A stretch of DNA of 64,000 nt. Origin: Eledone cirrhosa (Eukaryota). A program made the position numbers and the translations under genes. Below, in pieces: positions 47,047 through 51,723 of this stretch (positions within the stretch are counted from its first letter, which is position 1; each line of letters begins with the position of its first letter). The notes beneath the pieces were generated by a model. That model made no database searches. It saw only the letters and a program-made list of their open reading frames with translations, and had not been told where the DNA came from. Where the stretch lies: contig OZ024743.1 of NCBI GenBank assembly GCA_964016885.1, positions 250,418,001 through 250,482,000 of the forward strand, read 5' to 3'.

Positions 47047-48739
47047 AGGAACGCGATTATTAAACAAATTTTGAATACAAAACCAGCAACCTTTACGGAC
47101 TTCCGAAGATCCACAAATGTAAAATAATCAACGATGCCTGTAAACAATCCACCTCAGCCTGCGGGAACACACAATACCCCACAGACCTTAAATTAAGACC
47201 AATTGTAGCGGGCCCACAATGTGAAACACACAGATTGAGCAACTTTATAGACATACTACTGAAACCAATACTGAAACACATACCAAGCCTTGTAAGAGAC
47301 GATCTGGACATCTTAAACCACCTCCCCAAACATGTCAACAACGACACTATTATTGTGTCTTTCGATGTAGTGAATCTCTACACAACGATCCCACACCAAT
47401 ACGGACTAGAAGCAATAGGATTCTGGCTAGAGAAATATCGCAATGAGATACCTGACAGAATAGAAAAAAGCTTCATCACCGAGGGATTAAAATTCATCCT
47501 ACAGAACAACTTTTTTGATTTCGATGGCAATACTTACAAGCAAATATCGGGGACTGCGATGGGTACAAAGGCCGCTCCAACTTATGCCAACTTAGTCATG
47601 GCATACTTAGAAGTCCAGATATATGAACAGTCCAAATCAAAATACGGATTGAACTTCCACAAATATTTATCAGAGAATTGGAAACGCGACCAACTGAAGG
47701 ATTTCAAAAACTTAATAACACACTCGACCAACTGAAGGATTTCAAAAACTTAATAAACGGATCAATAACCACATCCAATTCACAATGGAATACAGCCAAG
47801 ATCAACTCCCATTTCTGGACATCTTAATCATAAAAAAAGACACAAATATCGAAACTGACATACACTACAAACCAACAGATTCCAAACAATATCTGCTATT
47901 CACCTACAACCATCCAAAGCACACGAAGACGAACATTCCTTTTAACCTAGCAAGAAGAATTTGCACAATTGTCTCCAATTATGAAACGCGAAATAAAAGA
48001 CTTCAAGAATTAAAGGAAATTCTACTCGAGAGAGTACCCACTATTACTAATAAATAATGGAATAGAAAGGGCTAAAGCAATAGGCATTGATGAATTACGG
48101 AAACAGAAACAAATTCAAGGTACGTCCAATATTCTATCATATATCTCAACACACAACCCAAGAAATGCGGAAGCTTACAACACTATTCACAATAACATCC
48201 CACTACTAAAACAAAACCCAAGAATGAAAAAGGCCCTTGAAACACACCAAATAATCAAAAGCAAAAGACAACCAAAATCACTGAAAACATTACTCACCAA
48301 TGCCAAATTACCTACCACAAACCCACAACCAAGTATTAAAAAATGTGGTCGCTCTAATTGTGGAACCTGCAGTCACCTCATTGAAGGCAACACGTATACA
48401 TTTAAATCAGGACAAAATTTTACTGTAAAAAATCACTTCACTTGCTCATCAAAAAATCTAATTTATGCCATTAAATGTAAAGGATGCAATGAAGATTATA
48501 TAGGACAAACTAAACTCACACTCAGAAACAGAATGACAGTTCATCGCCAACAATTACGAGATCCAACCACGAGACAGATACCACTAAGTGCACATCTAGA
48601 CATTTGCGCAAGTAATAAGACACCCAAATTCCAAGTCTTCCCATTTTACCTTTGCGCTAACAATACAACAGAACAAATGCGAATAAATAAGGAAAATATG
48701 TTTATTCAAAAATATAGACCAACATTAAATAAGGTTTAA
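47047..48739 (+). pseudogene. PLE reverse transcriptase core/thumb plus Cys-linker and GIY-YIG endonuclease (disrupted)
   Basis: [91 protein letters not shown]...H, E..FI..Y.PTLN. Frameshifts present; DD motif missing. Confidence 0.92.
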
Positions 48740-49685
48740 TATACATTATGTCAACACCACAATATGACATACACACACACACATAATACCTTCTACTTTA
48801 GAAAATAAAAACCCGAACTAAATAAACCTTAACTTACGTTTGCACTGGCAATACAACAACAAACACGAAAAAGTAAGGAAAATATGTTCATTCAAAAATA
48901 TTCCTACTAAAGGAATCACTTTCCTACACACACACATACACACACACACAATATATATATATATATATATATTCTCTTCATCTTAACATGCTAACCATAC
49001 TCCCACACACATAACACCCATACACACACATAACAACCCCCACACCTACAACTCCCTCCCCCTATCTCTACTAATAGAATCATCTTCCAATACACACACA
49101 CACACACACACACACACACACACACACACACACACACACACACACACACACACACACACACACACATACACACACACAAGCACACAAATAAACATACATA
49201 TCTTCACTTCAATAGAAAATCTGAACTCTGACACCCCGGCCAGCTGGCCATATTCACTGAACCAGAACAATTCTCCCAATCCCTTTTCTCTTGACCACTA
49301 TCTCTCCATTGTCATAACATTCTCTATAAAGACTACAGAATAGTTTTCCAAATAAGGGCGCAAAAATGTAATGAAAACTTGTTCACGTGACAGCCAAATT
49401 TCATTTATAACCAACCAAAAAAAAGCCTTCGTGAGCCTCCTTTTTTCAAGTAAAAAGAAATTCAAACACTCATATATGAAAAAACAACCTGTGACAACCC
49501 CCCCTCTCTTATTTGAAGAACTATTGTAACGCGAACTGGCGCGAAATTTATTATAATTATTGACAAACCAATCAAATTACTTCTCGAAAAACCTGGCATT
49601 TCGAGCCACTTTTTCCATATAAAACAAGTAACATTCAGAGACCAACCAGATGTGAGAAAAACCACAGACCCTCCATCTCAACTCA

Positions 49686-49723
49686 CCTTTTGAAAAGCAG
49701 AAGAACTGCGAAACCGGTAAAGG
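49686..49723 (+). ncRNA. Minimal type I hammerhead ribozyme in the PLE pLTR (U3-A8 core variant)
   Basis: CCTT TTGAAAA GCAG-aagaa-CTGC GAAA CCGG TA AAGG. Identical copy at 57692-57729 (-). Confidence 0.75.
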
Positions 49724-49888
49724 AACCAAATAAATATATATATTTAAAAAAAAAATAAGACTCCAGTTGCATTTTCGATTTCATCTCTTTTTCTTTATAC
49801 TTTCACTCGTGTAGGACATCTCGGTTATTTTTCATTTTGTAAAAAAAACCTCACTTTCTAATATATACCCACCACACGAAGACCGAAA

Positions 49889-51091
49889 ATGCCACCAAAG
49901 TCTCAACAAAACAACAACTCACTGAACCAGGACATCTTAAATGAACTCAAAGAGATTTCCTCTAAACTCTCAATTTTGACCAACAAAGTGGACCAAATAC
50001 ACATCTATAAAAAAGGACCCCACGAAGAAACAGAAAATACCCAAGAGACGAATATTACTCCAGTATTAACTAAGCTAATCGAAACCATTGAAACAGCAAT
50101 GCTCCAAAAGCTTGAACAACCGTCAGAACCCAATCTACGAGATGTCCACTCAGTGAAAAACACCCTAATCAACATATGGACTCAAAAGCTCACAGCCCGC
50201 AAATTCGCCCTTTGGAATCTCCTAAAAAATAATGGCAAGGCAGACATATATGAAAAGTGGCTAAACTCTACCCCAATCATCCTCCCCAAAAAACTCCAAA
50301 TAAAACCCATCCCGAATGAACCAGAAAACCAACAAAGACTTAGGGAAAAGATGGCATTGGAAAAATTTAAAACAGAAATAGAACTGTTGCGATTAAGAGC
50401 CAACTCCAACGAAGAAAAATTCAAGTCACTCGACCAACAGATGGACACAGAAATCTCAAAGCACTCTGAAGGCCTACTCTACAAAAAAACCCTAAAACTT
50501 TGGAAAGAAAACTGTGAGGATGAAGAACTAACATCCCTCCAGCGATGGGAAAAAAACGCCACCTGGTTCAACAACTACGAAATGGACTTCAAAAATGAAC
50601 AACATACAGGTAACCCATTTTTAAAACAAACTAAAACTCACACACCACATGCACAACAAATAACAAAAAAAGTAACAAAACGTCCAACATACCCCCAGCA
50701 AAACTATAACGATAATCCCAGAAACCATAGACAAAACTATAACCCTACTAACAAAAACCAAAGATCCCCGAACACAAGGCAGGACCTGATCCGCAGATCA
50801 CAACCCACACAAAACCTATTCCAAAACCGTAGACCCCTGCCCACACAGAGCCTGTTCCAAAACCGTAGATCCCAACCCACACAAAGGAACCAAATCTACA
50901 GCCCGGACTATCAACAAACCGAACCTCAATACGTCCGAAACTCCTATACAAGACGACACAACAACAGAGGAAATACCATTAGATATAATAATACCAATGA
51001 AAAAACATTCCAGAAAAATCATTTTTTAGACCAAGGCTACAGGACTCACGACACCCGGTGGCACAAACCGATTTTGAAAAACCGAAAATAA
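49889..51091 (+). CDS. PLE ORF1, 400 aa: predicted coiled-coil middle and Q/N/R/P-rich C-terminus
   Basis: Uninterrupted ATG-TAA ORF between the pLTR and the RT N-terminus. 12-aa repeats RRSQPTQNLFQN/RRPLPTQSLFQN. Confidence 0.8.
   Translation: MPPKSQQNNNSLNQDILNELKEISSKLSILTNKVDQIHIYKKGPHEETENTQETNITPVLTKLIETIETAMLQKLEQPSEPNLRDVHSVKNTLINIWTQKLTARKFALWNLLKNNGKADIYEKWLNSTPIILPKKLQIKPIPNEPENQQRLREKMALEKFKTEIELLRLRANSNEEKFKSLDQQMDTEISKHSEGLLYKKTLKLWKENCEDEELTSLQRWEKNATWFNNYEMDFKNEQHTGNPFLKQTKTHTPHAQQITKKVTKRPTYPQQNYNDNPRNHRQNYNPTNKNQRSPNTRQDLIRRSQPTQNLFQNRRPLPTQSLFQNRRSQPTQRNQIYSPDYQQTEPQYVRNSYTRRHNNRGNTIRYNNTNEKTFQKNHFLDQGYRTHDTRWHKPILKNRK
51022..51028 (+). promoter_or_regulatory. Candidate -1 programmed ribosomal frameshift site U_UUU_UUA
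   Basis: In ORF1 phase (caT TTT TTA). The -1 frame is open directly into the PLE motif IINISNTNLS..ILSKGLKFTPTP. Confidence 0.7.
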
Positions 51092-51723
51092 TTAACATTT
51101 CAAATACAAACCTCTCAGCCAAACAAGTAAAAATTCTCTCCAAAGGTCTGAAATTCACACCAACACCACAATACCCTAACCCAACGAGATAAATGACGAT
51201 ATCTCACACTTCTGTAGAAAATTACGTCTCACAGAGGAATTCTTTGACAAGGAGAATAACGACGAATCAATTGTACGGAATAAAAGCAGCTACAACCCAA
51301 CAAAAGGTAGAAACAGAGTTCTGGACAAATTTTGTGACCACATAGCTACCTTCCCATACCATGAACTACCGCAACCTAAACCCAAACCCAACACAAGTCG
51401 AAGGGAATGGGAGATTATCCATGAACTAAAAAACAATACGGACATTGTAATTAAGGAAGCGGATAAGGGAAGTACTGTTGTCATTATGGAGGCTGAAAAA
51501 TATAAAATTCTATGTTCTCTCTCTTACAAAATACTAATTACTATGAAAGAGTAAAAAAACTACCAGCAATCAAAAATAATGACCAAATTAAACACACTGA
51601 TTTATCGATACCAGGAAGACCTAACTAAAAAGGAACGCGATTATTTAACAAATTGTGAATACAAAACCAGCAACCTTTACGGACTTCCGAAGATCCACAA
51701 ATGTAAAATAATCAACGATGCCT
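51028..51723 (+). pseudogene. PLE RT N-terminal region (frameshifted by decay)
   Basis: NLS..LSKGLKFTPTP, FCRKLRLTEEFF, IVIKEADKGSTVVIM (DKG motif) and LYGLPKIHK. Confidence 0.88.

Follow-up and report, generated by a model that had tools for sequence, protein, structure and literature searches.

How does a retroelement come to begin in the middle of its own reverse transcriptase (RT) and to stop 93 bp past its own starting point? The question is raised by a Penelope-like element (PLE) at positions 47047-51723 of a 64,000-nucleotide stretch of the Eledone cirrhosa genome (GCA_964016885.1, contig OZ024743.1, positions 250,418,001 to 250,482,000 of the forward strand), hereafter the window, whose own positions are used throughout. 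The original prediction took the insertion for a circularly permuted unit, reverse transcribed slightly more than once around a circular RNA or integrated from a circular DNA. We compared it with 178 other loci of the same family. The window locus is a decayed copy of a new PLE family, rare in its layout and ordinary in its kind, and it is not good evidence of a circular template. The best reading, which we hold at about an even chance, is that a long partial tandem afterwards lost its 3' part through a deletion reaching into a TA tract.

The window copy and its terminal overlap

The ends of the insertion repeat each other at 91 of 93 bases (blastn E=2e-40 inside the window), as had been claimed, and Tandem Repeats Finder (TRF) confirmed a (TA)n tract on either side:

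46916-47045, unstranded: left (TA)n target tract, 65 units (TRF)
47047-47139, + strand: first 93-bp overlap copy, the 5' end of the insertion, within RT; one private change creates a stop at 47061-47063
51631-51723, + strand: second 93-bp overlap copy, the abnormal 3' end against (TA)n; private change at 51655; junction unique in the genome
51723-51949, unstranded: right (TA)n tract, about 115 units (TRF)

The overlap copies lie 4584 bp apart, and the insertion totals 4677 bp, or one unit plus 93 bp. A unit of 4584 bp, as first proposed, stands as the spacing of the repeats but not as the length of an intact unit, which is 4690 bp in the natural copy L079 and so exceeds the unit at this locus by about 106 bp. 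Both insertion boundaries are uncertain by 1 base owing to microhomology with the TA tract, and each junction was found exactly once in the genome. The two overlap mismatches are private, one to each 93-bp copy, and either is carried by 0 of 98 other copies. The repeats were therefore likely identical at birth, and the mismatches are therefore uninformative between models. Four sequencing runs aligned on 50700-51742 show the family base at 51655 in nearly all of their depth; with the private base nearly unseen, these runs reflect the family and not the window locus.

Could the layout be an assembly artefact, in which a repeat-graph loop put one unit into a 93-bp fragment between TA tracts? The unit does make a cycle in an assembly graph, but private changes are spread over both halves, among them one in each 93-bp copy and a replacement of the YxDD codons. 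Moreover, its substitutions are unremarkable in load and in spectrum (5 transitions and 9 transversions, against 667 and 824 in the other loci), and the locus lies inside a 379-Mb contig. We regard an artefact as very improbable.

Reading frames and Pfam upheld the predicted order of parts, which starts mid-RT and runs through the RT core, the GIY-YIG domain, the 3' untranslated region (3'UTR) with its pseudo-long terminal repeat (pLTR), open reading frame 1 (ORF1) and the RT N-terminus. The pLTR is present in the window copy only internally, together with both of the ends at which other loci terminate:

48740-49867, + strand: 3'UTR/pLTR, lying internally in the window copy; includes sub-repeats and a (CA)n tract
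49686-49723, + strand: putative minimal type I hammerhead, its cut predicted to fall after 49719; U3-A8 core, palindromic helix III
49796-49799, + strand: short canonical 3' end (TATA), intact and unused in the window copy; end of 58 of 178 loci
49860-49867, + strand: long canonical 3' end (68-bp tail), intact and unused in the window copy; end of 103 of 178 loci

The hammerhead that had been predicted in the pLTR is present as a motif, assigned by eye from sequence and fold. It would comprise stem I CCUU/AAGG, core UUGAAAA, a 4-bp stem II, GAAA and the palindromic helix III; in the modelled fold of the region stems I and II form, with a z of only -1.45. The canonical CTGANGA core was not found in the window copy, which has the U3-A8 variant instead, a minimal form described in PLEs (PMC4209133). 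An Rfam scan of 44000-55000 gave no hammerhead match and only below-threshold microRNA hairpins. Across the loci, 179 of 280 hammerhead motif matches are identical to the window motif. The DNA fetched for loci L031-L210 also holds further hammerhead-like motifs that share the palindromic helix III and differ in their stems, which may point to more PLE families in this genome.

Starts, stops and repeated templates across the family

Loci were sampled through probe counts in the ~3-Gb genome. A 23-mer inside the overlap has 193 exact matches, and a nearby 20-mer has 95 and 358 matches for its two alleles, meaning that at least 453 copies in the genome hold it. The 178 loci besides the window comprise 99 from the first 100 23-mer matches, 39 from the allele with 95 matches and 40 from the first 100 listed of the 358. 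A 10-kb stretch was fetched per locus; 14 of the 95 matches of the one 20-mer allele fall outside the sample, and L130, which has no anchor, is excluded from counts. Two picks were not blind: L131+L132, chosen for two matches 4.9 kb apart, and L210, already seen to be truncated. Element positions (u) take L079 as reference, with u1 the first base of the window insertion.

Varied permutation points with short overlaps, expected across the family under the original prediction, were not seen. Instead, 161 of 178 loci end at u2856 or u2924, fixed pLTR sites 68 bp apart that lie 80 and 148 nt beyond the predicted hammerhead cut, and 156 of these 161 normal 3' ends adjoin TA. Unit-length permuted copies with a short coding overlap number 0 among the 178 other loci (95% upper bound 1.7%). 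The 5' ends are spread across more than 4 kb. Loci longer than one unit number 45, all with a normal 3' end; the upstream hammerhead site is passed by 39, of which none stops within 5 bp of it, and upstream ORF2 is reached by 10 of the 178 5' ends. A linear hammerhead-cut monomer was rejected as the main template, given no 3' ends at the cut and, among the 39 passing 5' ends, none closer than 5 bp to it. Many 5' ends at first seemed to gather at the start point of the window insertion, but this excess shrank with the natural long copy L079 as reference. Two clusters of three 5' ends each were observed, L111, L120 and L161 at u-1927 (hammerhead stem II loop) and L119, L156 and L208 at u-1888, after a TA/A run; none lies at the cut site.

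What part of the circular-template reading survives is the recopying of a single template. Direct repeats within a locus have 107 shared common non-majority alleles and 8 discordant ones (37 loci), whereas random partners gave 21 shared and 146 discordant. A further 40 shared alleles are private to their locus, 30 of them from a single locus. The family thus copies the same template sequence more than once. Repeats of one template lineage can arise through a circle, through homologous strand transfer between pLTRs, by gene conversion or by unequal exchange, any one of which is enough. These repeats fit the circular-RNA model of 2014 and are no proof of it; the absence of permuted units among the sister loci speaks against the circular-template reading.

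Inverted 5' arms provide a second view of the copying machinery. They occur in 99 of 178 loci, and in 92 of these the inverted arm likewise terminates at a start site, the short or the long one. Within an insertion the arms take opposite sites, in 81 of 82 cases by alignment and in 78 of 80 by motif (Fisher p=4e-20), and arms of one insertion share locus-private variants (21 in 86 loci). Together, opposite sites and shared private variants suggest that a single complex primes the two target strands, working from two sites of the same template. Counts of such strict two-arm reciprocity were not found in print, in a search covering the main texts of open-access papers.

The loss of normal ends follows a different pattern. 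A normal 3' end is missing in 17 of 178 loci, 10 of which end in ORF2. L104 and L150, both old copies, end in ORF2 directly against (TA)n, and L158, whose two ends both fall in ORF2, shows a 1.5-kb gap in place of an overlap. Abnormal 3' ends are concentrated in the most mutated third of loci (12 of 59, against 5 of 119 in the rest; Mann-Whitney p=0.002), an age link that is predicted by later damage and not by off-site priming at birth. Overall, the family targets (TA)n, begins copying at either of two fixed sites and breaks off at scattered 5' points; its copies often run seamlessly past a unit, and they lose 3' ends with age.

One locus, L131+L132 (G000:C1:356294000-356313999), is a head-to-tail tandem of 2.2 units. 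Its two full units share 30 variants absent from all other sampled loci and differ at 17 clean sites. Rolling-circle copying or unequal pLTR exchange could have produced it, either being sufficient.

Origin of the window copy

In the favoured reading of a tandem with a later deletion, the window copy would have started at a normal pLTR site, and copying would have run about 1.6 units back to mid-RT (u1), where the 5' end presumably joined the left TA tract as other 5' ends do. The long TA tract on the right would afterwards have broken, with the loss of about 2.8 kb back to 51723, and the short overlap would then be a coincidence. Both ingredients are seen apart in the family, as 5' ends in upstream ORF2 (10 of 178) and 3' ends lost within ORF2 (10 of 178), alongside the one 2.2-unit tandem. 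Long AT/TA repeats are described as stimulating deletions in yeast (PMC12972899), and by analogy a TA-tract deletion may have acted at the window locus. As to copying beyond one unit, the locus is compatible with an RNA circle, with a homologous transfer of the strand from one pLTR to another and with a tandem transcript.

Several observations weigh against a tandem cut back by deletion. It requires a 7.6-kb original, a length reached by one of 178 loci, itself chosen for its two matches. If end types are independent, about 0.6 of 178 copies are expected to have both ends in ORF2, and one was seen besides the window; an overlap below 100 bp has a chance of about 4% or less. A rough estimate comes to 0.01-0.06 such copies per family, making the overlap an uncommon coincidence, which by the same rough estimate is rare yet reachable in a scan of many families and genomes. 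The 3' junction of the window copy reads TGTA where the target has TATA and so nearly repeats the word used in normal priming; matches to T[AG]T[AG] occur, however, at 82 sites of the unit. By private substitutions the copy is of middle age (58th percentile). Finally, stops of normal copies in the first 450 bp beyond one full unit are about twice as frequent as elsewhere, at 1.8 against 0.7-0.9 per kb (25 events in 13.7 kb and 116 in 171.5 kb; binomial p=4e-5, with bins picked post hoc). Either a stall on a circle or a transcription start in the pLTR would produce this raised rate.

An alternative, which takes up the original prediction, is a birth by target-primed reverse transcription, in which priming off-site at 51723 (at the TGTA word or a broken RNA end) was followed by crossing of the pLTR and a stop 93 nt past one turn. 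The pLTR would be crossed seamlessly via a ribozyme-made RNA circle or by inter-pLTR strand transfer. Only 4.8 kb of copying is required, a length attained by 45 of 178 copies; the shared alleles of within-locus repeats, the passage of 39 loci across the upstream hammerhead site with no stop within 5 bp, the raised stop rate directly past one unit and the likely identity of the 93-bp copies at birth all agree with it. Against it, priming is tightly site-specific, the two sites accounting for 161 of the 178 main arms and for 92 of the 99 inverted ones; none of the 178 other loci is a permuted unit, and abnormal ends follow copy age. A circle offers no free end, and because it keeps both normal start sites, intact here (49799 and 49867), circular RNA alone is no explanation of the mid-RT start. 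The raised stops lie in the pLTR, where a transcription start would give the same pattern; the first-pass stop rate of inverted arms there, 1.1 compared with 1.3 per kb beyond, speaks only against a sequence-specific stall. In addition, the Anolis Poseidon element is described as inserting in vitro without need for hammerhead cleavage (PMC11167929). On balance we consider off-site priming possible, though doubtful.

A DNA circle would account for the two coding ends, the unused intact pLTR and the near-unit length in one step. Here recombination between the two pLTRs of an ordinary copy would have looped out a one-unit circle; opened in RT, this would have entered a broken TA tract by copying or integration, leaving the 93-bp overlap. 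Pieces consisting of a pLTR alone do exist (57543-58542), and both halves of the window copy are nearest to one older sub-lineage (L082, L095, L105). The layout recurs in 0 of 178 other loci, however, the analysis yielded no direct sign of DNA circles, and we judge this origin improbable. The shared sub-lineage counts against a fusion by pLTR recombination of two insertions, one 5'-cut and one 3'-cut in RT. Suitable partners are available, both as 3'-cut copies and as six loci whose 5' starts lie within 40 bp of the window 5' point (L039, L055, L080, L116, L122, L125), but the 93-bp overlap would still arise by chance, and such a fusion appears highly unlikely.

A larger proposal would join the locus to the family pattern. 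The window copy would be the direct footprint of a unit circle opened mid-RT, either ribozyme-ligated RNA or pLTR-looped DNA, and copying of the family would fall to a single complex of two enzymes, which would prime each of the target strands at its own one of two reciprocal sites of a shared template and could run round that template more than once. Taken as a whole, we hold this only tentatively and think it rather unlikely. Permuted units would bear on the regeneration of pLTR tandems in PLEs if such copies were common; because they are not common here, a single locus carries little weight. The family is more useful than the locus: it is young and offers intact copies, two sharp reciprocal start sites (78 of 80) and same-template repeats. 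It forms a clean system for the question of circle versus strand transfer, by reverse-transcription PCR or in vitro.

Relatives, coding parts and neighbours

By Pfam in the window copy and by the intact 775-amino-acid (aa) frame of L079, RT is followed by a C-terminal GIY-YIG domain, the arrangement of C-terminal endonuclease-bearing (EN+) PLEs. The L079 translation contains the DKG motif and two Cys inside the GIY-YIG core, with the CCHH His pair seen by eye only. The linker, C-X4-C-X2-C, fits the pattern CX2-5CxxC, which is common to Neptune and Nematis, and the family targets (TA)n. At family level it also has partial tandems (45 of 178), variable 5' ends, inverted arms (99 of 178) and a tail; the window copy itself has only its internal pLTR. 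By its domains, this is a C-terminal EN+ PLE with Neptune-type features. Naiad and Chlamys, with an N-terminal EN and no hammerhead, were rejected as relatives given the C-terminal EN of intact copies, and the EN-before-RT order across the window pLTR is tandem geometry, not domain permutation.

The closest parallels are the Neptune/Nematis-type PLEs as described by Craig et al. 2021 (PMC8557442). Shared features are the DKG RT, Cys linker, C-terminal GIY-YIG, hammerhead pLTR, partial tandems, inverted 5' arms, a tail at one end, (TA)n targets and an ORF1 separable by a frameshift. The tail is 68 bp in the Eledone family and 30-40 there, and the window copy, unlike that type, has neither normal end. 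According to the same source, a PLE tail is frequently at one end only. In their Discussion, Cervera and de la Pena 2014 (PMC4209133) suggest that RNA cleaved by the hammerhead is ligated into a circle and reverse transcribed beyond one unit; as set out there, the model accounts for ordinary partial tandems, whose 3' start is fixed, and does not predict a mid-RT start. Anolis Poseidon PAc (Frangieh et al. 2024, PMC11167929) resembles our family in having two internal RT start sites that set the tail, in the cutting and extension of both strands and in its AT-rich targets. In contrast, it has a single ORF and belongs to the Poseidon clade, whereas in Eledone the TATA-ending start sites match the target and the arms use opposite sites. 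Circular permutation has likewise been described for Pen3 copies of Adineta vaga, in which the terminal parts overlap (Arkhipova et al. 2013, PMC3846280). Those lie on detached contigs, with inverted parts and suspected assembly collapse, while the overlap here is direct and flanked within a chromosome-size contig. The retrozymes of a recent preprint (10.64898/2026.07.22.740005) are described as non-coding elements.

The coding parts of the window copy are as follows:

47047-48739, + strand: RT core, thumb, C-X4-C-X2-C linker and GIY-YIG endonuclease (part of ORF2); broken by frameshifts, with the intact 775-aa frame in L079
47684-47721, + strand: YxDD codons replaced by a copy of downstream 47722-47756, private (repeat family D17; comparison with other loci)
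48455-48727, + strand: GIY-YIG domain (Pfam PF01541, E=1.2e-7, passes the cut-off)
49862-51091, + strand: ORF1, 409 aa counted from stop to stop, with an ATG at 49889 and without a Pfam match
51001-51723, + strand: N-terminal part of ORF2 (DKG motif), frameshifted, ending within RT
51022-51028, + strand: predicted -1 frameshift site, a T TTT TTA heptamer where ORF1 and ORF2 overlap (frames and conservation)

Because the YxDD codons are replaced and the frames broken, the window copy is dead and cannot code. Its RT core matches Pfam RVT_1 at E=4e-4, under the cut-off, and besides the stop at 47061-47063 it carries several small deletions and several frameshifts; in private indels it ranks 146 of 155, that is, rich. 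The sequence copied over the YxDD codons is the downstream neighbour of 35-38 bp. This replacement (47684-47756) left the length unchanged and resembles a forward-and-back template slip. The intact unit in L079, by comparison, encodes a 409-aa ORF1 and the 775-aa RT-EN frame. The T TTT TTA heptamer lies in the right frame for a -1 shift from ORF1 to ORF2, is identical in 94 of 112 copies and is followed on its 3' side by a weak hairpin; a frameshifted ORF1 is listed for some PLEs in the Fig. 1 legend of Craig et al. 2021 (PMC8557442).

Both flanks consist of other repeats. On the left, the insertion borders the intact end of a dispersed repeat of 168 bp (46748-46915), which ends at TA tracts and whose 40 scored matches are all 96-100% identical; an older inverted copy lies on the right flank at 52385-52543. 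The right flank is the start of a tail-to-tail pair (51950-52364), around a TA tract, of a repeat resembling short interspersed nuclear elements (SINE-like, a label from reading the sequence and not from a database). Since the flanking repeats differ, no single interrupted host element is usable for an empty-site test. The SINE-like repeat is also inserted at about u1016 of the PLE in L144, L148 and L149. Further along, 52735-53502 holds a 255-aa C-terminal piece resembling long interspersed nuclear elements, with no Pfam match, and 54616-56307 a 563-aa reverse transcriptase frame of the non-long-terminal-repeat type (RVT_1 E=2.6e-33). The pLTR-only insertion of the PLE family at 57543-58542 has a short inverted arm and its long start site against (TA)n.

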